Positions 2,406-24,468 of a stretch of DNA of 45,606 nucleotides are shown in pieces. The stretch's first letter is position 1, and every line of letters starts with the position of its first letter. Both the position numbers and the translations under genes were made by a program. This DNA is from a virus: UHGV virus genome UHGV-1352141, one strand, 5' to 3'. The notes below the pieces were generated by a model. It made no database searches. It was not told the DNA's origin and was given only the letters and a program-made list of their open reading frames with translations.

Positions 2406-3557
2406 TTAAAAGTTGATGTATTTCGCGAATTTTTCAGCAGATTTTTCTTGCTGATTTTTTGTTACGTGGGAGTAAATTTCGAGGGTTGTTCTGGCGTTGC
2501 TATGACCTAATCTATATTGAACTTCTTGAATGGACAAGCCCGCTTCAAACAGAAGGCTGCAATGTGTGTGTCTAAGTCCATGAACTTTTATATCTTCAAA
2601 ATTGTTAGCTTTACATATTCTAGCTAAAATGCGGTTTATTCTTGCGTGATCTAGAATTTGATTAGACTTGCTAGAAAAAACCAATTGATTGGGAGCTAAG
2701 GAATTAATACCATAACTCAATAAATATTTTCTTTGATCGATTCGCCATTTTTTTAAAATTTTGATTGTTTCGTTGTCTAAGGAGATTCGGCGATTCGAAC
2801 TATGACTTTTAGGATCGGTAATTATAGGGCGACCATTATAATTTCTTGCTGATGTTTTATTAATGTCTAAGGTTTTATTATCGAAATCTATATCGTTCCA
2901 TGTTAATGCTAAAAGTTCTCCTTTACGTATTCCTGTAAAAGATAGAAGTCTAAATAAAGGATATGTTAAAGGGTAACTATCCTCAGAGCAACATTTTAGG
3001 AATCGTTCAAGTTCTTCCTTTTCGAAGAATTTCTTTTCTTTGATTACCTCCTTCTTTTTCTTTGGAACAGGCACATGTTCCATAGGGTTATCATCTATAA
3101 GACGTAGTTCTTTTGCGTAGTCAAAGACAGCCGATGTGTAAGAACGAATAGCTTTGTAAGTTTTGTACTCCTGATACCATTCATTAACAATATTTTGGCA
3201 ATAAGGAATATTAATCTTGGAAATTCTTTTTTCTTTAAAATGTGGCAGTATATTGCTTTGGAAGATAGTATACACTCTACTGTATGAACTTTCTTTCACT
3301 GTATTTTTGTAACTTTTGAGCCATTTGTCAGCAACTTCTCCAAAAGTCATATTTGATTGCGGCGTGTACTTATTATCTTTAGCTTGAAGTTCCAACTTTG
3401 CTAAAGCTAGTTTTGCCTCCTTTTTTGTTTTAAAACCTCTTTTTGTTGTGTACTGCTTTTTTCCAGTTAAGGGATTAATACCTAGATATGTTTTGAAATA
3501 CCATGCTTTATCTCCGTTTTTCTTCTGGTATTGTTTTATCATTGCCATGTGACTCAC
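2406..3557 (-). CDS. int: Tyrosine site-specific integrase
   Basis: C-terminal catalytic signature HGLRHTHCSLL...LGHSNARTTLEIYSHV (R-H-R-Y). First gene of the lysogeny module, next to the att candidate. Confidence 0.9.
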   Translation of the reverse strand: MSHMAMIKQYQKKNGDKAWYFKTYLGINPLTGKKQYTTKRGFKTKKEAKLALAKLELQAKDNKYTPQSNMTFGEVADKWLKSYKNTVKESSYSRVYTIFQSNILPHFKEKRISKINIPYCQNIVNEWYQEYKTYKAIRSYTSAVFDYAKELRLIDDNPMEHVPVPKKKKEVIKEKKFFEKEELERFLKCCSEDSYPLTYPLFRLLSFTGIRKGELLALTWNDIDFDNKTLDINKTSARNYNGRPIITDPKSHSSNRRISLDNETIKILKKWRIDQRKYLLSYGINSLAPNQLVFSSKSNQILDHARINRILARICKANNFEDIKVHGLRHTHCSLLFEAGLSIQEVQYRLGHSNARTTLEIYSHVTKNQQEKSAEKFAKYINF

Positions 3558-13524: not shown

Positions 13525-14463
13525 GTGGCAAGACCAACAAAGAACGGTCTTGATTATTTTCCTCTTGATGTTCACATTTTTGAAGATGAAAAAATAGAAG
13601 CCATTGCTGGTGAATTTGGTATCAAAGGTGAGCTTGCAGTAATCAAACTGTTATGCGCGGTATATGAAAAAGGATACTTCGTTGTATGGAATGACCTGAC
13701 CAAAGCTAAACTTTTGAAAAGACTACCGGGCACCAGCAAGGATTTGTTAGAGCAAGTTGTCAACCGCTTAGTTACATGGGAATTTTTTAATAAAGACCTG
13801 TTTAACTCGGCTAAGGTATTGACCAGCAAAAAAATCCAAGACAACTATTTTGAAGCAACGAAAAGAAGGAAAATGCCAAAACCAACACAATACGTTATTA
13901 ATGCTGACAATAACTCACAAGTAAAGGGAGTTAATGTAGACATTAATCCACAAAGTAAAGTAAATAAAACTAAAGTAAATAAAACTAAAGCTTCTGAAAC
14001 TAGTATTACTAAAAATTCAGAAGATAGTGCTGTGCGTTATTGGCTCAATCAAGTCAACCCAGCAGAAGCACCATTCATTACTCAATCCATTCAGCATTGG
14101 GTAAATGACTTTGGAGGTCAGGACGAAATTATCATTTTAGCGATTGATGACATGTTGAAGCATGGCGCTAGAAGCTATAAATATCTTGACGCTGTGCTAA
14201 GAAGCTGGGAAAACAAGCAATTAGATACCGTTGAGAAAGTGAAGCGCCAGCTTGAAAGTCATTATGCTAAGCCAAGCAATAAGACTAAGAGCCGCAACTC
14301 GTTCAAGCAAGTAACAAACTACGGCGAGACATTGTACACGTATTACGAGCAGGAACTCCGCTTTTCGCCAAATATGACGTTCGATGAGTATGTCGCTAAG
14401 AAGCGCCTAAATGAGCGTGACCGACAAGCATTAGAACAATACGTTCACAGTCTGGGGGAGTGA
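13525..14463 (+). CDS. Phage replisome organiser with a C-terminal DnaD domain
   Basis: N-terminal phage_rep_org_N-like region and C-terminal DnaD-like segment (YKYLDAVLRSWENKQLDTVEKV). GTG start after GGAGGTG. Confidence 0.7.
   Translation: MARPTKNGLDYFPLDVHIFEDEKIEAIAGEFGIKGELAVIKLLCAVYEKGYFVVWNDLTKAKLLKRLPGTSKDLLEQVVNRLVTWEFFNKDLFNSAKVLTSKKIQDNYFEATKRRKMPKPTQYVINADNNSQVKGVNVDINPQSKVNKTKVNKTKASETSITKNSEDSAVRYWLNQVNPAEAPFITQSIQHWVNDFGGQDEIIILAIDDMLKHGARSYKYLDAVLRSWENKQLDTVEKVKRQLESHYAKPSNKTKSRNSFKQVTNYGETLYTYYEQELRFSPNMTFDEYVAKKRLNERDRQALEQYVHSLGE
13956..13990. repeat. Perfect 15-bp tandem repeat TAAAGTAAATAAAAC (2.3 copies) inside the replisome organiser gene
   Basis: Seen directly. Encodes KVNKTKVNKTK. 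Confidence 0.6.
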
Positions 14464-14467
14464 TAGA

Positions 14468-14752
14468 ATGACTGATTTAGAATTGGCAGACGCAATCACT
14501 TCGTTGTTACCCGATGACTATCGAGAAAAGTTGAGGGGAACACAAGAACGCTTTGAAAAGACCATGGAGCAAACGAAACTAGACACCAAAGAATCGAACG
14601 AATGTTTTTGTCGATACATGGAGATTTATTGGCTAGCGGTTTATAACGGGCGATACGAATACAGTGCGTTGCAAAAGCTAGAGTATTCCGAATGGCGCAA
14701 ACGTGCAAAAGAGATGCTACAAAGATTGCAACGTAAGGCGGTGACCGCATGA
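14468..14752 (+). CDS. Hypothetical protein
   Basis: Translationally coupled to the neighbouring genes. Confidence 0.5.
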   Translation: MTDLELADAITSLLPDDYREKLRGTQERFEKTMEQTKLDTKESNECFCRYMEIYWLAVYNGRYEYSALQKLEYSEWRKRAKEMLQRLQRKAVTA

Positions 14753-15105
14753 GGCGTAAGAAAACACCAGAACAACGACAGGCTAGACGTGAACTTTTTA
14801 TGCTAACTGACGAGGAACTAAATCCAGAGTGGTTCAATGATCCAGAAAAAGTAAAACGTCGGGATGAATTGCTGGGAATTATCGAATATCGTGAACCGGT
14901 TGTAATGAGCGACGATGAAAAGTATCAACGCTATTTAGACAAACGCCCAGGTTTAGAGGCTGCTGTCGTAAAGATGTTGCTTGAAAAGAAGTTAAGCAAA
15001 GAAATTCGAGACGAATTAAAAATGGATTTTAAAGTGATCGCATTTTGTCGGAGAAAATACAATTTGAATCCGAAAATACGTACGAAAAGAGTTAGGAGAA
15101 CATGA
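14749..15105 (+). CDS. Hypothetical basic protein
   Basis: ATGA overlap with the upstream gene. Confidence 0.5.
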   Translation: MRRKKTPEQRQARRELFMLTDEELNPEWFNDPEKVKRRDELLGIIEYREPVVMSDDEKYQRYLDKRPGLEAAVVKMLLEKKLSKEIRDELKMDFKVIAFCRRKYNLNPKIRTKRVRRT

Positions 15106-15415
15106 TGGACGAACTAATACAAATGATCGAAGAGTGGTCGAAAGAACGCGGAATCAATAAAGCAGATCCTCAAAAACAGATGCTTAAACTGTACGAGGAG
15201 ATCGGTGAAACGTCAGCGGCTGTCGTCAGGGACGATAAAGAAGCCCTCAGAGACGCGATAGGTGATTCGGTCATAACATTTTACTCAATCTAGCTTTGCA
15301 GAACGATATGAGCCTGTATGAGTGCGTGATGCACGCTTATGGAGAAATCAAAGGGCGAGACGGCAAAATGATCAACGGCATGTTCGTTAAATCTGACGAT
15401 ATGAGGATCGGTTAG
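15102..15415 (+). pseudogene. MazG-like nucleotide pyrophosphohydrolase interrupted by a frameshift in a T4 run (15279..15282)
   Basis: Frame A ends at the TAG at 15291. The -1 frame continues with LNLALQNDMSLYECVMHAYGEIKGRDGKMINGMFV, which is MazG-like. One extra T would restore a single approximately 104-aa ORF. Confidence 0.6.
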
Positions 15416-15461
15416 CAGTAAGCCTTGTATTTTTTTGGACAAAAATTAGGAGGAATACGAA

Positions 15462-15740
15462 TTGAACAAAGTAAAAATTACAGCAGTATTAATTATTACC
15501 GCTTTGGCTTTATCAGGATGTGCTAGTTGGGATCGTTTGAAAAAGAGTTGGTCCAGTGAATTAGGCAACGGTCTTGAAAGAGAGGTCGTCATTACAGACC
15601 AAACAGGCAAAGTGGTTTATGAAGACTCAGGTAAGTTCGATGTTGAAGTAAACGATTATCGCGTGAAGTACATTGATGAAAAGGGTAAGCTTCACATTAT
15701 TTATCTCGGTGCTAGTACAGCCGTTGTTAATGAGAAATAA
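15462..15740 (+). CDS. Lipoprotein
   Basis: Signal peptide with lipobox LSGC. TTG start 8 nt after AGGAGG. Confidence 0.6.
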   Translation: MNKVKITAVLIITALALSGCASWDRLKKSWSSELGNGLEREVVITDQTGKVVYEDSGKFDVEVNDYRVKYIDEKGKLHIIYLGASTAVVNEK

Positions 15741-15786
15741 AAGTTCTGCTAACTGGGGCTATCACGTAGAAAAAAGACCAGCTAGG

Positions 15787-17739: not shown

Positions 17740-18074
17740 ACATTATCAAAATAGTTTTTGACGTTATCAGTTTTGCTTTAAACACCGCACTAATTATTTG
17801 TTGGGCGAGTTTCATTTTTTACGGTGGGATATGGCAAGCTGGAAACTTTATGAGTATAGAACTTAACGGATTACTGAGAAACAGCAAGAAGGCCTATAAA
17901 CCAAACAGCGAACAGTTCGAAGTAATAGAACGCTCCAATGTCATACAATTTGACGAAATGGGCTATCCACTCCGATTGGTAATGATTAATTTGGGCAATG
18001 GTACCGTCGATCATGTTTGGCGAGATACCACTGAAAGAGAAGATGATGTGGTGTTGGAGTGGACTAAAATTTAG
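17736..18074 (+). CDS. Small membrane protein
   Basis: GGGAGGA ribosome-binding site. One transmembrane helix (IVFDVISFALNTALIICWASFIFYGG). Confidence 0.5.
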   Translation: MNIIKIVFDVISFALNTALIICWASFIFYGGIWQAGNFMSIELNGLLRNSKKAYKPNSEQFEVIERSNVIQFDEMGYPLRLVMINLGNGTVDHVWRDTTEREDDVVLEWTKI

Positions 18075-18114
18075 TTCCGGTAACCACGCCTATTAAGTAG
18101 GAAGGAGAAATAGT

Positions 18115-18297
18115 ATGGAGGACATACTTAGATTGTTGAATGAAAGAGAACGACAGAGTGAAGATGCATTTGATAATTTCTCAAAAACTGAGCCAAATAA
18201 TATTGATGATTGGCGACAAGGATATATGTATGGACTTAAGGAAGGGCGACTAAGAGAGATCAAAGATATAAAAGAAATGGTCTTAAAGAATCGTTAA
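18115..18297 (+). CDS. Hypothetical protein
   Basis: GGAAGGAG ribosome-binding site. Confidence 0.5.
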   Translation: MEDILRLLNERERQSEDAFDNFSKTEPNNIDDWRQGYMYGLKEGRLREIKDIKEMVLKNR

Positions 18298-18327
18298 ACC
18301 AAGCCAATTTTATTAGAAGGAGCACCT

Positions 18328-19278
18328 ATGACGAGAAAAAAACAAAAAGAAATACTCTTTTGTGACTATTTTGATCAATGGGTTGAGACCTACAAGGTCG
18401 GGGCAATAAAACAAGTGACACTTAATAAGTATTATATGTCTGGTAAGCAACTGAGAAATATTTGCCCGAAACTACTCATGTCAAATTTTGATCGCATTGA
18501 GTATCAAAAAATCATTAACGAGTATGCAAAAACGCACGAGAAACAAACTACCGTTGATTTCCACCACACAATCAAGGGTTGCATCTTGGACGCGTTTCAC
18601 GATGGCGTACTTGATAAAGACCCGACGTATCGTGCTGTAATTAAAGGAAAAGAACCAGGAAAAAAACGCATGAAATTCTTACAAAAAGAAGAGTTAACTA
18701 AACTACTTCATTCGTTAGATTTAACGCACGGAATCAATAAAGATTGGTTCATCTTACTACTAGCTAAAACAGGAATGCGTTTCGCAGAAGGTTTAGCTAT
18801 TACACCAGCAGATTTTGATTGGTCAACGAATCAATTAAGCATAAATAAAACGTGGAATTACAAAAAATTTAATGGCGGTTTTGAAACGACTAAAACCGAA
18901 AGTAGCATTCGAAAAATCGCTATTGATTGGCAGATCGTCGGACAGTTCAAACCGCTTATAGAAGGTCTAGAACCGAACGAGCCTATCTTTATTGAGAAAT
19001 TGGCAGATGGTCACTACAAAAGGCAGCATAATTCAACATACGGCAACTATTTATTATCAAAATGTAGAGAATTAGGCATTACAGAAATAACGTTGCATGC
19101 CTTGAGGCATACACATGCCAGTGTTCTTTTAGCTGAAGGTGTATCAATCAACACAATATCGGCACGACTAGGGCATGCGGATGTTGGAGTGACACAAGAG
19201 ACATACGCTCATGTTTTAGACGAACTAAAGAGAAAAGACGATCAAAAAATGATGAGCGTTCTGATGCAGATTGCATAG
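18328..19278 (+). CDS. Second, complete tyrosine recombinase (phage-integrase family)
   Basis: TGMRFAE (Arg), LHALRHTHASVLL (H-x-x-R), LGHADVGVTQETYAHV (H...Y). Full length, 316 aa. Confidence 0.8.
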   Translation: MTRKKQKEILFCDYFDQWVETYKVGAIKQVTLNKYYMSGKQLRNICPKLLMSNFDRIEYQKIINEYAKTHEKQTTVDFHHTIKGCILDAFHDGVLDKDPTYRAVIKGKEPGKKRMKFLQKEELTKLLHSLDLTHGINKDWFILLLAKTGMRFAEGLAITPADFDWSTNQLSINKTWNYKKFNGGFETTKTESSIRKIAIDWQIVGQFKPLIEGLEPNEPIFIEKLADGHYKRQHNSTYGNYLLSKCRELGITEITLHALRHTHASVLLAEGVSINTISARLGHADVGVTQETYAHVLDELKRKDDQKMMSVLMQIA

Positions 19279-19292
19279 CGAGGTGATCAAGC

Positions 19293-19820
19293 ATGGCAAG
19301 TAGATGGACTGAAGATGAAGACGTTTATCTAGAATATTTTGCTTATGAGGGCGATTCGGGCATTCAAGAGGCGGCTGAATACTTGAATAGATCAAAAGCG
19401 GCTGTTGTATCACGACTACAATACTTGCGAAAAAAAGATAGCAATGTTCGATGCCTGAAAAGGAAATGGTCAGAAAAAGAAGATGAATTTCTTAGAAAAA
19501 ACTATCGTGTCATGAAAAATAATGAGTTAGCAAAACGTTTAGGGCGAACATGCGCAGCAGTGGATCAACGAAAAAAAATATTAGAACTGAGGACTATCAG
19601 ACCGATTACCGTTCATAAGGACAAGATTATTGAACTCATACAGAAGGGATATTACAGACCTGAAATAGCGAAAGAATTGAATATCAATGAGGCTTCATTA
19701 GTAAAATTTTTGATAATTAACAAAATCTACTGCAAGCCTGTTCCATACAAAATGAGAACCAAACAAATTAGAGAAATTAATGAGAGGCGACTTTATGTTA
19801 ACTGCGAAAATAGTAAATAA
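19293..19820 (+). CDS. SANT/Myb-like repeat DNA-binding protein
   Basis: Two W-x-E-D-E/D-x-x-L repeats (WTEDEDVYL, WSEKEDEFL) plus a C-terminal HTH-like segment IAKELNINEASLVKFL. Confidence 0.5.
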   Translation: MASRWTEDEDVYLEYFAYEGDSGIQEAAEYLNRSKAAVVSRLQYLRKKDSNVRCLKRKWSEKEDEFLRKNYRVMKNNELAKRLGRTCAAVDQRKKILELRTIRPITVHKDKIIELIQKGYYRPEIAKELNINEASLVKFLIINKIYCKPVPYKMRTKQIREINERRLYVNCENSK

Positions 19821-20388
19821 CCTTTTGGAAGTAGATGACAGCTACAAAGCGCCTGAATCACTTTTAAAAAAGATGCTAGATAATGACGATAGGGTCAAAT
19901 TATTTGATGATTTCTTGAAGATCGAACAAGAACTGGATCGTGATTGGTTTGTCGATTACTTCCAAGAAGAACACTCAGAACGTAAGAGATTTAATCAAGA
20001 TTTTACTCCATTACCAATGGCCGAGCTTTTAAATAAACTGACTGGAAATTCAAGAACCTATTTCGAATCAGCAGCAGGGTCAGGCGGTTTACTGATCAGT
20101 GCATGGGATCAGAACAGAGCTGAAGCTTGCGAACATAGGTTAGATTCAAGGGCCTATTGGTATCAAGTAGAAGAGCTGTCAGATAGAGCCGTTCCGTTCT
20201 TAATCTTCAATATGGCGATCCGTGGGATGAATGGTGTGATATTGCACGGCGATAGCTTGGAACGAACATTCAAAGAAGTCTATTTCATTCGAAATGAATC
20301 AACTGAGTTTTTAAAGTATAGCGAAGTCTTTGTAATGCCAAAAACGGAGATGTTAATGGCTGAGTTGGATATTAAAAAGTTCATCTAA
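19795..20388 (+). CDS. Methyltransferase-like protein (SAM-binding motif I present, catalytic motif IV not evident)
   Basis: DFTPLPMAELL...YFESAAGSGGLL resembles motif I of N6-adenine DNA methyltransferases. No (D/N)PP(Y/F) motif found. Short at about 198 aa. Confidence 0.4.
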   Translation: MLTAKIVNNLLEVDDSYKAPESLLKKMLDNDDRVKLFDDFLKIEQELDRDWFVDYFQEEHSERKRFNQDFTPLPMAELLNKLTGNSRTYFESAAGSGGLLISAWDQNRAEACEHRLDSRAYWYQVEELSDRAVPFLIFNMAIRGMNGVILHGDSLERTFKEVYFIRNESTEFLKYSEVFVMPKTEMLMAELDIKKFI

Positions 20389-20461
20389 CTCAGCCTATCA
20401 AGTAAGAATCTATGTGATCATTAATCGATTTTTTGATCACATAGAATTAAGGAGGTATGAA

Positions 20462-20947
20462 ATGAATAAACAAGAATTGATTAAAAAAGTAAAAGCGCTT
20501 GAGGGATACAACAGTGCCTTTTCAAGAGATTATGAAATCGGACATGACGAATGTATGGACAAAGTCGTATTGCTAATTGAACAACTAGACGAACCGCAGA
20601 AAGTCAAAGCTAGGTTGGCAAAACATTGGGATGAAGATTTAGGAGATTGCTTGTGGTGGGATTTCCCAGTAGAAGAGCCGCCATATTGTGGCACACCACT
20701 AGATGACGATTTTCCAAAGTATAAGACACATTTTACTGAACTTCATATTCCAGACGAGGTCGAGAAAGAGCCAAAGTGGGTGGTTAAGATAGAAGACAAT
20801 GGGTCAGCGTACTTTGTTGACTTTTTCGATGAATTACAGCCTCATCTCGTCTACGGTTTAAGCGGCGAAGTAATGAGATTTGATAGCGAAGATAAAGCGA
20901 ATGCGATTGTTACATTGATTGAATGTGGCACAGTTGAGAAAGTGTAG
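20462..20947 (+). CDS. Hypothetical protein
   Basis: AAGGAGGT ribosome-binding site. Trimmed from track ORF 20414. Confidence 0.55.
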   Translation: MNKQELIKKVKALEGYNSAFSRDYEIGHDECMDKVVLLIEQLDEPQKVKARLAKHWDEDLGDCLWWDFPVEEPPYCGTPLDDDFPKYKTHFTELHIPDEVEKEPKWVVKIEDNGSAYFVDFFDELQPHLVYGLSGEVMRFDSEDKANAIVTLIECGTVEKV

Positions 20948-21300: not shown

Positions 21301-21470
21301 GCAAGTTTTTCGAAGAACTATTCGCTGCAACGATGATCCTTTTTAAAGAGATTATTGGTTTTATCAGTTATTGTTGGAACCTTGAAAATAGAGATAAAAG
21401 CTGGAAAGACTTTCCGGTAACCGAAGCGATAGCAGAAAAAAGACTGCCGCGGTATGAAACGGCAGTCTAG
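21297..21470 (+). CDS. Small hydrophobic protein (57 aa)
   Basis: GGAGGAGGTG ribosome-binding site. ATGA coupled. Confidence 0.45.
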   Translation: MSKFFEELFAATMILFKEIIGFISYCWNLENRDKSWKDFPVTEAIAEKRLPRYETAV

Positions 21471-21598
21471 TGCTAGGTGGGGAACCTAGCTGCGCACAAT
21501 TGGTGTCTTCTCAAAAGACACCAAAAGCGTAACAAGTAACCGTTTTAGTTTCAAGCGCGAACGGTAGTTAAGAAGAAATAAGTTATAAATAATTTGTA

Positions 21599-22432
21599 AC
21601 AAAAAAGACCGCTGGGGATTGGTCAGCGGTCGTGAGCTGATTGAAATATGCTTTTAACCCGATTAAAAAGGAGGGGCCAGCTCATCACTATTGTACACCT
21701 AGTAGCGCAATAAAAAAAGACCGCTAGGCAGTCAGTTAGCGGTCAATGAGCCGATTGCGAAAGTTGTTTGTAGTCAACAAAAGAAAATATCAGCTCTTCA
21801 TAATTGTATCATAAAAAGGACCGCTTTTTCATATGGCAGTCCCTAAGCTAGTGTAGTATTCTTGGATTATTTATGGATTTTTCTAGCTCAAATATATTGT
21901 ACACCTATGTGAATCAAAGTGAAATAACAAAAAAATAAATTAAGAAGCCTAGGTTTTATGAATTTGAAAGGTATAATGCCTGGTTTTCGTTAGACAAAAT
22001 AGACCACTAAAAAAGCGGTCTACGAGCTAGATGAAATAGGTTTTGACGTTAACGAAAATTAGAAAGGAAAGAACTAGCTCATTTAGATGATACCATAGAA
22101 AAAGACCACTGAATAGTTATATCAGTGGTCCCTGAGTTAGGTAGTTGTGCTTATAATAAGTGGGTTGTTTTTTTATTTAACCTAACTCGTTGGGCTAGTG
22201 CAGTATCAAAATTGTCGGTCTCAAACTTCAAGAAAATTACTAGCCCAATTCTTATTTTACACAGAGATAAGTAAGAAAAAAAGGCCGCTGAGTAAAAAAA
22301 CAGCGGCTTGTGAACTAGAAAAATTCGGGTAATATGGAAAAATTAGAAACCAGCTCACACTAAAAGTTTATCAAATTCATTTTTCCGTTTCAAGATCGTA
22401 CAAAAAAACGCTGGGAAAGTTCCCAACGCCTC
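21599..22432 (-). repeat. Array A: at least seven tandem divergent hairpin units that look like small-RNA transcription units on the minus strand, in about 1 kb of ORF-free DNA
   Basis: Each unit has an A-run plus a GC hairpin on the plus strand, which is a hairpin plus T-run terminator on the minus strand (e.g. 21607..21630, 21719..21744, 22104..22130, 22283..22308). Each also has a second, larger co-varying stem and a TGnTAnnAT element on the minus strand. No ORF of 60 aa or more on either strand. Confidence 0.6.
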
Positions 22433-22481
22433 TTTATGAATAAAAACTGACAAGATAATTATACCATAAGGAGTGGCGATT

Positions 22482-22961
22482 GTGAGATTTCAATGGTTAA
22501 GGGATTATCAAGATTTGGAAGAACAGTTACTCTACTTAAAGTGGAATCTGAATAAAAGTAAACTTGAATTGATTCGGTGGACAACTGGTGATTTATCGAA
22601 AGTACGTATAGAAAAAAACTCTCGATCGTCATTGCTCGAAGAGAATATTACTCAAATTGAAAATGAGATTGAATTGTTAGAAGAACAACAAAAGGAAATG
22701 TTGGTCATTATTCAATCTTTCAAAGGAGTCGAAAATGAAATTGTTCGTATGAAGTACATTGAGGGATTAACTTTGGAAGAAATAGTGGAAGAAACCGGAT
22801 ATAGCGATTCTTACATAAGAAAAAAGCATGCGGAAATCAGAAGTAAGCTTCAATTTATTGATGATTACGAGGCTCGCCATTTAGATAGAAAAGCAAAAAA
22901 AGAAGAGCTTGAATACTACGATGAAAAAAGGAGAAAAACTCAGCAACTTTCCCTTTTTTGA
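22482..22961 (+). CDS. ArpU-family late transcription regulator
   Basis: C-terminal sigma-70 region-4-like HTH (GLTLEEIVEETGYSDSYIRKKHAEI). GTG start 8 nt after AAGGAG. Confidence 0.65.
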   Translation: MRFQWLRDYQDLEEQLLYLKWNLNKSKLELIRWTTGDLSKVRIEKNSRSSLLEENITQIENEIELLEEQQKEMLVIIQSFKGVENEIVRMKYIEGLTLEEIVEETGYSDSYIRKKHAEIRSKLQFIDDYEARHLDRKAKKEELEYYDEKRRKTQQLSLF

Positions 22962-23245
22962 AAATTTCAACATTCACTAAATGTGCACTCATTTTGTGTA
23001 TGGAAGTATTGAAATAGGCATGATATTTTATTAGCATAGAAAATTTTGAAAGGAGGAAGCTCCTCTTCGTTTCAATTTTTTCGATCGTTTGCAAGACGAT
23101 AAATACTAGACGGCACAAAAAATAAATAATGAATGGAGTTGAAAAGTTTCATTTCCGTTGAAAGTTCGCTGTGCTGTCTATTGTTATCAAATAATTTTTA
23201 TTAAAATTTATAGATTTCGAATATGTTCTTTTGTATAATATTTAA

Positions 23246-23396
23246 CGTAGAGAAGTTAAGATGAGTAGCTCCATTTTTATGACTCTGCACAAGTTAAAAA
23301 ATGATATATCTGAATGATTCTTTTAAACAATTCAAAAAACGATCTTACTCATCTTAACAACTCTACAGGATGTGAGTACATCACGTTCTTTTTTGC
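23246..23396 (+). ncRNA. Candidate small RNA of about 150 nt, from a TGTATAAT promoter to an intrinsic terminator
   Basis: -10 box at 23234..23239. A long internal stem GTAGAGAAGTTAAGATGAGTAG / CTTACTCATCTTAACAACTCTAC. Terminator ATGTGA-GTACA-TCACGT plus T-run at 23370..23396. No convincing ORF. Confidence 0.35.
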
Positions 23397-23536
23397 TGTT
23401 AAATTAAAACATACTAGCATGATTATTAGTCTTTTTGTATAATATTTGCGTAGAAAAGTGAAAAGATGGTGGCTAATCTCTTGAATAAAGGGGTGATGCC
23501 TATGGTTCATAGCTTTATCCCTAGAAGGGAGTAGGC

Positions 23537-23623
23537 ATGTCTGTTTATCAAGCGTTGTCGCTGATGATCGCATTTGCGACGTTAGTGTTGCTGATTACAG
23601 ATCACACGAACACAAAAAAATAA
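23537..23623 (+). CDS. Candidate type I toxin-like peptide (28 aa)
   Basis: MSVYQALSLMIAFATLVLLITDHTNTKK. The ribosome-binding site GGGAGTAGGC sits inside an inverted repeat GCCTAT...ATAGGC. Driven by a second copy of the TGTATAAT promoter at 23445..23453. Confidence 0.4.
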   Translation: MSVYQALSLMIAFATLVLLITDHTNTKK

Positions 23624-23702
23624 TCATCTTTTAACACTTTAGCGAGAGTTAAGATGATTATCTTCTTAATATTCAGCTACCGTCTTTTTAACGGTTCTAC
23701 AT

Positions 23703-23729
23703 GGACGTGTTTGCAGCACGTCCTTTTTC
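23703..23729 (+). terminator. Intrinsic terminator after the toxin-like ORF
   Basis: GGACGTG-TTTGCAG-CACGTCC followed by TTTTT. Confidence 0.6.
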
Positions 23730-23819
23730 TATATCTATTATAACATGTGAATAAAGAAAATCAATTGAGATCGCTTCGGCGGTCTTTTTATTTTGAAATA
23801 CTTTTGAGGAGTGATTGCT

Positions 23820-23894
23820 ATGAAGCAAGTGTTAGATCGAGTGAAACGATTGTTTGGTAGGCGTAATGGATTAGTGACAGCAGTCTCCTCGTGA
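23820..23894 (+). CDS. Possible 24-aa basic peptide ORF
   Basis: GAGGAG ribosome-binding site 8 nt upstream. Peptide MKQVLDRVKRLFGRRNGLVTAVSS. Bracketed by terminator-like hairpins at 23769..23794 and CCTCGTGAGG plus T-run at 23888..23910. Confidence 0.3.
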   Translation: MKQVLDRVKRLFGRRNGLVTAVSS

Positions 23895-23917
23895 GGCTGT
23901 TTTATTTTGCTCACAAA

Positions 23918-24135
23918 AATAGACCACTACCGGGTAATAGTGGTCAGGAATTAAATGAAAAAGATGTTAAAGGGTTGTTAGACAAGTATAACATCATAGC
24001 GTTTACATAGCAATACAAAAAAGAGCCACTGTTTCCGCAGCAGCCCTTTAGTGTAACAAGTAACTATAAATATATCATCCTTGGCCATGTATTTCAACAC
24101 ACAAAAATAGACCGCTGTTTCCGCAGCGATCTATC
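23918..24135 (-). repeat. Array B: three more hairpin/terminator units of the same family
   Basis: GACCACTA/TAGTGGTC at 23922..23945 and GACCGCTG/CAGCGATC at 24110..24131, each followed on the minus strand by T-runs. GTAACAAGTAAC motif at 24052, shared with 21529. Confidence 0.5.
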
Positions 24136-24210
24136 TGTGAAACGTAAACAATTTATACATAAAGCATACAATAATAACGCTTACATTGCAACGCAGAAAG
24201 GGATAGAGCA

Positions 24211-24468
24211 ATGAAAACTTACTGGTACGTGTCATTAAACAATAAATATCCGAAGCCAATGAAAGGACAGCATAGACGTGTAGTCATGTCTGTTCAAATG
24301 AAGGCGAAGTATTCGATTGTAGAAATGATCAGAGAGGCAACGCCAGTAGAGATTGATCATTGCAAATTGATCTATCTTGGAAAAGGCTTCTTTTTTGATA
24401 CTCAAATTCAACAAGGATTGGCCAAGCATTTAAGTAGAATGAAAATCTGGAAACAAAACTCAACCTAA
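24211..24468 (+). CDS. Hypothetical protein
   Basis: AAAGGGATAGAG ribosome-binding site. Immediately upstream of terS. Confidence 0.5.
   Translation: MKTYWYVSLNNKYPKPMKGQHRRVVMSVQMKAKYSIVEMIREATPVEIDHCKLIYLGKGFFFDTQIQQGLAKHLSRMKIWKQNST

Follow-up and report, generated by a model that had tools for sequence, protein, structure and literature searches.

Type I restriction-modification (R-M) systems that undergo phase variation occur widely among pathogens and dairy bacteria and are seen both as a population-level phage defense and as an epigenetic switch; to our knowledge, no phage answer to them is known. In Enterococcus faecalis, the 930-bp invertase gene efiA lies in a locus of the order hsdM-hsdSA-efiA-hsdSB-hsdR, where hsdS is inverted at two repeats (Huang et al. 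2020, PMC7672463), and an hsd inverton with an integrase in the locus has been described from Listeria monocytogenes CC8 (Fagerlund et al. 2016, PMC4783014). Here we compare with these invertons three consecutive early genes of the virus genome UHGV-1352141, whose 45,606 nucleotides were analyzed as one stretch (the window). All on the plus strand, they encode Int2, an arm-less tyrosine recombinase with a core-binding and a catalytic domain (18328-19278; 316 amino acids [aa]); a triple helix-turn-helix (HTH) protein of homeodomain/Myb-like type (19293-19820; 175 aa); and M*, which by alignment corresponds to the N-terminal half of an N6-adenine methyltransferase of the HsdM type found in phages (19795-20388; 197 aa).

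Int2, the HTH protein, and M* together form one conserved, selected, and order-shuffled early-phage module, and sequence comparison firmly identifies Int2 and M* as homologs of the invertase and the HsdM of EfiA-type type I R-M invertons. A sequence-only reading of this DNA had missed both that the trio recurs in shuffled order and that, by homology, Int2 and M* trace to components of such invertons. We infer that the module arose from their hsdM and invertase genes or has a common ancestry with them. The comparisons draw on 160 classified loci fetched from genome and viral collections, among which the phage-clade loci are not independent of one another but cover at least 10 lineages. A chance pattern of open reading frames (ORFs) is excluded for all three genes, because each has a large family of homologs and the ratio of nonsynonymous to synonymous substitution rates (dN/dS) is low for Int2 and M*.

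Int2 and the invertases of type I R-M loci

The sequence-only reading had placed a second, complete tyrosine recombinase of 316 aa in the early operon, and profile searches uphold this. Int2 matches Pfam Phage_integrase (PF00589) over residues 116 to 298 (E = 5.7e-21; 75.5 bits against a cutoff of 27.1) and PHROG 1, "integrase" (E = 1.3e-56), and its N-terminal domain has a weak SAM-like profile match. The six catalytic residues, R151, K189, H257-x-x-R260, H283, and Y293, show no variation across a 17-sequence cross-genus alignment; judged by profile and alignment, the protein is complete and its catalytic residue set intact, rather than a truncated or inactive remnant. Values of dN/dS against close relatives (0.02 to 0.05 for Int2 and 0.05 to 0.09 for M*) indicate strong purifying selection on both proteins. 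Int2 does not resemble an att-integrase of the lambda type: it has no arm-binding domain detectable as an Arm-DNA-bind profile match in Pfam, and it sits in the early operon, not beside attP and the lysogeny module. The att-proximal integrase of the window (2406-3557, minus strand; 383 aa, with Arm-DNA-bind_4, SAM_3, and catalytic domains in Pfam) lies about 15 kb away and is 27.6% identical to Int2. Scores for the NCBIfam Xer models also fall far under their cutoffs (63.5 of 220 bits for XerA, 45.6 of 329.6 for XerD, 40.4 of 335 for XerC, and 26 of 267 for XerS). The recombinase is 72% identical to gp43 of Listeria phage B025 and gp64 of Listeria phage B054, and about 14 of 50,697 phage records carry it.

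Two further viral sequences are of interest for Int2 itself. One IMG/VR contig (L139, 6148-9577) has two tandem Int2-family genes (317 and 310 aa), with a gene for a 291-aa protein without a Pfam match between them and M* next in line. Another sequence (L091, IMGVR_UViG_2811995062_000001) encodes an Int2 that is 100% identical to that of the window, yet it is a mosaic relative rather than the same phage, the only stretches in common being 14001-15759 and 18073-20475, at 99.8 to 99.9%.

When one genome per species was scanned, hundreds of Int2 relatives, full length and at about 50% identity, came to light, distributed over Firmicutes, Bacteroidota, Actinomycetota, Proteobacteria, Veillonella, and Saccharibacteria. 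Because the neighbors of these cellular relatives are genes for HsdM, full and half HsdS, and HsdR, we take them to be the recombinases of phase-variable type I R-M loci. Against 66 R-M-embedded recombinases, Int2 has a mean identity of 51% (45 to 66%) over its full length. The EfiA-type invertases resemble it in being arm-less, two-domain proteins of about 309 to 316 aa with about 51% full-length identity and in their genetic linkage to an HsdM-type gene. They differ in sitting in an R-M locus containing no fewer than two hsdS genes and inverted hsdS repeats, whereas phage Int2 has no hsdS or hsdR neighbors and is paired with the HTH protein and a truncated HsdM; its membership in the group is one of homology. 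In a rough neighbor-joining tree, phage and R-M recombinases make up one family, separated by a long branch from the att-integrases, with the phage lineages basal or paraphyletic and the R-M invertases largely nested among them. Both clades conserve 89 positions (at ≥85%), and the residue is identical at 88 of these. Identity between phage and R-M proteins, at 0.50 for the N-terminal domain and 0.54 for the C-terminal one, is the same as that among phage proteins, and thus there is no sign of a shift in specificity.

The sites on which the cellular enzymes act can be followed through the same loci. The two published EfiA repeats share the core CAGYGTAAGTTRG, for which we found 60 exact matches in 67 R-M loci, mostly as inverted pairs around the recombinase gene, and the 30-bp hsdS repeat is recognizable in 47 of the 67. 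The repeat of the L. monocytogenes CC8 inverton is the same as the EfiA-type repeat. Invertons of the matching type are present in the host genera of the phages (an E. raffinosus megaplasmid, L. monocytogenes CC8, and EfiA of E. faecalis), and in Pisciglobus a phage-type and an R-M-type copy of the recombinase occur in one genome. The central hsdS repeat, ATCACCCTTCATCAGCGTAAG, is nearly base-for-base constant across phyla in the R-M loci (e.g., at position 2369 of L040, 3614 of L049, and 2736 of L050). Such conservation looks to be beyond what the encoded peptide ITLHQRK would need and would fit an invertase crossover site.

The recurrent module and its proteins

Temperate phages carry the module in Enterococcus, Listeria, Lactococcus, Sporolactobacillus, and relatives, on otherwise unrelated backbones and in company with different replication and packaging modules. 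Gene order varies among hosts: Int2-HTH-M* in the window and other Enterococcus phages, M*-Int2-HTH in Listeria, Int2-M*-HTH in Sporolactobacillus, and M*-Int2 in Lactococcus. Either M* or its full-length counterpart M lies within 2.5 kb of Int2 in 59 of the 64 phage-clade loci with adequate flanks, and the short M* occurs in none of the 67 R-M loci. The usual place of the module is near the boundary of the early and late regions, where it often adjoins genuine phage methyltransferases; in B025-like phages it stands at the start of the early region. The genes of B025 (gp42-gp43-gp44) and B054 (gp64-gp65) are true orthologs with the same early-operon context and a separate att-proximal integrase, and they are annotated "DNA methyltransferase," "site-specific integrase," and "transcriptional regulator, D5-like." In B025, a 237-aa "DNA methyltransferase" homologous to M* precedes gp43 and the HTH gene gp44 follows directly; besides the order, it differs from the window in that the Listeria M* has an additional "HIES" tail that the 197-aa form lacks. 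B054 has Int2 (gp64) and then the HTH gene (gp65), with neither M nor M*. The positions of the module differ between these two phages, and the only stretch that they have in common (81% nucleotide identity) opens with the start codon of Int2 and closes with the stop codon of the HTH gene, making Int2-HTH the tightest unit.

A B025-like lysogeny and early region with M*-Int2-HTH is also found in the L. monocytogenes plasmid pCFSAN008100 (NZ_CP011399, 54668-68224), typed as a mobilizable plasmid, where it lies beside the bcrABC disinfectant resistance genes. We considered this record as a phage-plasmid that would back a role in dimer resolution and rejected it, as it is merely a B025-like prophage segment in a plasmid record.

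In databases, the individual genes carry generic labels, namely, "site-specific integrase," "N-6 DNA methylase," and either "hypothetical protein" or "D5-like regulator." In the full-text literature, subscription-only papers not covered, we found no description of a phage Int-HsdM module, of a phage HsdM decoy, or of the kinship of the module with type I invertons. The paper on the pneumophage SpSL1 reports an early "N6 MTase" without detectable adenine methylation, together with a "recombinase." Sequence comparison led us to reject SpSL1 as a described precedent: its cds16 is an unrelated DPPY-type methylase and its cds27 is a 180-aa integrase-like protein.

For M*, the sequence-only reading had described a 198-aa protein with a methyltransferase motif I and no (D/N)PP(Y/F) motif. 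Motif I is present as YFESAAGSGGLL and the catalytic motif is indeed absent from M*, whose end reads "...SEVFVMPKT..."; the length needed correction, since the first ATG (19780) gives 202 aa and the ATG at 19795, preferred by gene callers and by its ribosome-binding site, gives 197 aa. Depending on the start, the HTH and M* ORFs overlap by 26 to 41 nucleotides. The match to Pfam N6_Mtase (PF02384) is restricted to profile positions 13 to 118 of 311, far from a complete catalytic domain, and M* also matches PHROG 1071 (E = 2.1e-73). In an alignment with HsdM, its S-adenosylmethionine (SAM)-binding motifs X and I to III find their counterparts, and motif X (QDFTP), motif I (AAGSGG), the acidic pair of motif II (EE), and FN...HGDSL are invariant or nearly so among 60 M* homologs. 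The family numbers 505 homologs, nearly all of 193 to 210 aa. A confident AlphaFold2 model (pLDDT, 85.4; pTM, 0.84) has a helical bundle and a partial Rossmann sheet and gives weak matches to HsdM, PacII M, and other class I methyltransferases in a fold search. Unlike HsdM, M* has no HsdM_N, no NPPY, and no C-terminal half to complete the Rossmann fold and bind HsdS, and about 55 aa at its N terminus make up a phage-specific helical bundle. At an E value of ≤0.001, PADLOC defense models gave no match for Int2, the HTH protein, M*, or ORF4.

The origin of M* can be read from full-length partners of about 400 to 411 aa that carry NPPYSAKW and stand beside Int2 in some phages (L104-L108, L122, and L148). 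Over 359 residues, these proteins have 46% identity to a type I HsdM, with 62% in the C-terminal half, and they match PADLOC MTase_I (E = 4e-95); they lack HsdM_N and begin with a phage-specific helical segment instead. M* lines up with residues 1 to about 160 of the L105 and L148 enzymes, from the phage-specific helices through FN...HGDSL, and then ends in a short, family-specific tail, MP(K/H)(T/S), where the enzymes, like HsdM, proceed to NPPYS and about 230 aa more. By this alignment, M* retains the N-terminal half of an HsdM-like phage enzyme, whereas motif IV and all that follows it are gone. The full-length enzymes of the IMG/VR contigs L105 (6758-7993) and L148 (7629-8831) are orphans, adjoining Int2 with no hsdS gene near. 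In Sporolactobacillus, one gene encodes the N-half and another the NPPY-bearing C-half, and the HTH gene lies between the two; in the S. shoreicorticis prophage (L009, 3839-5821; the same in L010), the halves are 168 and 238 aa, the latter 62% identical to cellular HsdM, and this split methyltransferase could be a two-piece enzyme or the result of an insertion event. We interpret M* as a maintained protein that is almost certainly noncatalytic and probably SAM binding. Its retention under purifying selection without a catalytic motif or C-terminal half makes a nonenzymatic role reasonable, as the sequence-only reading had proposed for a degenerate methyltransferase. At least 212 phage records from Streptococcus, Lactococcus, and Lactobacillus (e.g., S. 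pyogenes 315.2 and S. thermophilus TP-J34) have M* but no Int2, and there M* is annotated as a "DNA methyltransferase," which it very probably is not.

The HTH protein had been read as two Myb/SANT-like repeats followed by an HTH. Both motifs are there (WTEDEDVYL at residues 5 to 13 and WSEKEDEFL at residues 59 to 67), and the AlphaFold2 model (pLDDT, 77.5) has tandem three-helix bundles at residues 7 to 48, 61 to 96, and 105 to 142 plus a C-terminal helix, with the W-x-E-D-E-D signature in bundles 1 and 2. The family assignment did not hold: Pfam gave no match to Myb_DNA-binding (PF00249) at an E value of ≤0.01 and only weak sigma-70 r4/HTH matches. No significant match was found among PDB folds, and the top-ranked nonsignificant ones are tandem arrays such as Cbp1, double homeodomains, paired-like domains, Tc3, and the Myb domain of CDC5L. 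"Myb/SANT-like" thus describes the protein at the level of its predicted fold only. It matches PHROG 323, "D5-like regulator" (E = 8.9e-22), and is 52% identical to the B025 and B054 orthologs (gp44 and gp65), with 65% identity between the window allele and one Listeria allele. Relative to the E. avium-type relatives L175 (7965-8483) and L181 (7965-8489), the entire HTH gene of the window (19305-19775) is a different allele, at about 40% nucleotide and 25 to 30% aa identity, between Int2 and M* genes that remain at about 92% nucleotide identity. The breakpoints coincide with the gene borders, and the alternative allele has no W-x-E-D-E-D signatures while retaining three HTH units. By these comparisons, the gene is exchanged as whole alleles.

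Search for a phage substrate and the genomic setting

The sequence-only reading had offered an invertible or shufflon-type switch as one possibility. The kinship fits, in that the nearest cellular relatives of Int2 are hsdS invertases; the switch itself was not found. No HsdS, HsdR, or full HsdM is encoded in the window or in 67 phage-type loci, nor was an HsdM C-half found in the phage. The core CAGYGTAAGTTRG has no exact match in the window and the 67 phage loci, and the 30-bp repeat is in none of these loci. Long inverted or direct repeats in the window amount to imperfect matches at chance level, with no convincing inverted pair, and close relatives show no alternative orientation of the module, its order and orientation being identical in 8 of 8 Enterococcus relatives. 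In 20 diverse phages, neither k-mer sharing nor a search for palindromes with 11-bp arms and 6- to 8-bp spacers revealed a common lox-like site or other noncoding element up to 5 kb from Int2, and no extended synonymous-site constraint points to a cis site hidden in the coding sequence of the module. A nested integrative element, also suggested at first, is contradicted by the homology borders, which coincide with the start codon of Int2 and the stop codon of the HTH gene and have neither flanking repeats nor an att-like character; the junctions are ordinary ribosome-binding sites and gene borders. The phage has no invertible or excisable segment of its own.

The one perfect inverted repeat in the vicinity, of 12 bp (TCTATGTGATCA / TGATCACATAGA) with a 13-nucleotide spacer, lies at 20409-20445 between the M* stop codon and a DUF1642-like gene. 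It recurs in L091, L177, and L180, always directly upstream of the DUF1642 gene and, in L177, 1.8 kb from M*; we rejected it as an element of the module, as it travels with the DUF1642 gene. The listed GTG start of ORF4 (20414) crosses this hairpin, and an ATG near 20459 is probably the real start.

The window represents a siphophage-like temperate prophage from the Enterococcus avium group, and its Int2 is 96% identical to an E. avium protein. The trio lies within a long rightward early operon, where Int2 keeps company with replication and recombination genes such as RusA, SSB, and Gam. Positions 1 to 56 hold a tRNA 3' fragment with 98% identity to tRNA-Met/Ile in several phage records, probably the att-flanking host tRNA; ARAGORN called no complete tRNA in the window. 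Farther downstream, 21440-24140 has few ORFs and surrounds the gene of a sigma-70 r4-like late regulator (22473-22961); it contains 17 terminator-like hairpins against 3.6 expected, many of them with GACCGC/GCGGTC stems. A direct repeat at 24015/24101 stands directly upstream of the gene at 24211.

Possible functions of the module

We tentatively favor a reading in which this module, derived from a type I R-M system, is expressed early and acts in trans on the hsdS repeats of the host, on its type I complexes, or on both, as counterdefense or hijack. Action in trans is the most economical assumption because there is no cis substrate, no residue-level change in specificity, and a set of matching invertons in the host genera. 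The module would then act during early lytic growth, with Int2 probably recombining short repeats outside the phage and the HTH protein possibly targeting or assisting it. The most likely target would be the conserved hsdS repeat of a host type I inverton, with the core CAGYGTAAGTTRG, and a candidate substrate would be ATCGCTCTTCATCAGCGTAAGTTAGA. M*, or full-length M in some phages, would probably bind SAM, type I subunits, or both, and the net effect would be that host type I restriction-modification is blunted or co-opted. In EcoKI HsdM, preference for hemimethylated DNA and sensitivity to Ral map to HsdM_N, the domain that full-length phage M lacks.

Several points weigh against this reading. 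The action of Int2 on hsdS repeats, by binding or recombination, is presumed, and the residues common to the phage and R-M clades may be structural and not specificity determining. It is by gene size, locus layout, and repeat identity, rather than by the sequence of EfiA itself, that the R-M clade is identified with EfiA. A host-specific similarity between phage and R-M recombinases of the same genus was looked for and rejected, identity being 50 to 55% only. Restriction complexes already formed survive hsdS flipping, which leaves the gain within one infection cycle uncertain. In M*, the C-terminal region that HsdM uses to bind HsdS is missing, and PADLOC gives no match. Finally, M* is common without Int2 in Streptococcus and Lactococcus phages and B054 is without M*, so the trio may be a loose neighborhood rather than an obligate system.

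The main rival, itself rather doubtful, is a housekeeping role like that of Cre/lox in phage P1, in which Int2, with the HTH protein as accessory, would recombine a single phage site for the circularization of terminally redundant DNA once injected or for the resolution of replication multimers and the link to M* would be historical only. Int2 is arm-less, as are Cre and the Xer recombinases, and like them it would be a second tyrosine recombinase of a temperate phage, separate from integration; it is intact, strongly conserved, and set among replication and recombination genes. The site that such a role demands was not detected, however: no lox- or dif-like sequence was found for Int2, be it a conserved palindrome or k-mer in the 20 phages or a stretch of suppressed synonymous change in the module, and the unit exchanged between phages brings no flanking noncoding DNA with it. 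Rarity among phage records argues that this is not a general phage need, and the persistent linkage to HsdM-derived genes would be left unexplained. Another idea, that the module is a nested selfish cassette or a decaying fragment of a captured R-M system, useless to the phage, we regard as largely refuted and very improbable. Its different positions in B025 and B054, the otherwise unrelated backbones, and the truncated nature of M* would suit a cassette or a remnant, but the borders of homology match start and stop codons precisely and are free of repeats and att-like sites, the catalytic residues of Int2 are invariant, purifying selection on Int2 and M* is strong, and M* is a stable family of 505 homologs, of about 197 to 237 aa.

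Two other explanations grant the module a function and seem to us improbable. Leaky expression from the prophage could supply an invertase in trans that drives or accelerates phase variation of host type I R-M to the benefit of the lysogen; this lysogenic conversion would rest on the same homology and host-inverton evidence as the reading we favor, and the survey of invertons (PMC7672463) records some that have no invertase and may rely on invertases from other loci. Against it, the genes belong to the early operon of the lytic strand, a long way from the lysogeny module, no promoter of their own is conspicuous (the region has fewer promoter-like sites than expected by chance), and M* would have no explanation. 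Alternatively, the phage could own an epigenetic or regulatory unit in which the HTH protein is a specificity or regulatory subunit for M and Int2 is kept as a DNA-binding or occasional rearrangement factor, so that in M* phages, this one included, only a DNA-binding or SAM-sensing early-to-late regulator would be left. Full-length M, having no HsdM_N and no HsdS, would need another DNA-recognition partner; the replacement of whole HTH alleles between conserved flanks resembles the behavior of specificity subunits, and the usual position near the early/late boundary would be apt. Yet B054 has Int2-HTH without M or M*, the HTH gene travels with Int2 and not with M, the constancy of its catalytic residues suggests that Int2 does recombine DNA, and B025-like phages have the module at the start of the early region.

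Of action in trans on host type I systems, the most far-reaching version, which we put forward as speculation and think unlikely as a whole, is that temperate phages of Firmicutes carry a countermeasure to phase-variable type I R-M. Int2, expressed early and guided by a swappable HTH protein, would flip or scramble the host hsdS inverton in trans, and the HsdM-derived protein, as full-length M or dead M*, would hijack or poison type I complexes, with the progeny modified for, or escaping, all phase variants of the bacterial population. More modestly, the homologies hint that phages have borrowed invertase and methylase parts, perhaps against phase-variable type I systems. A module that joins an invertase to an HsdM-type gene without hsdS or hsdR points to one of three things: a new form of counterdefense, a phage origin of the bacterial invertases, or a new use for a dead methyltransferase half-domain.

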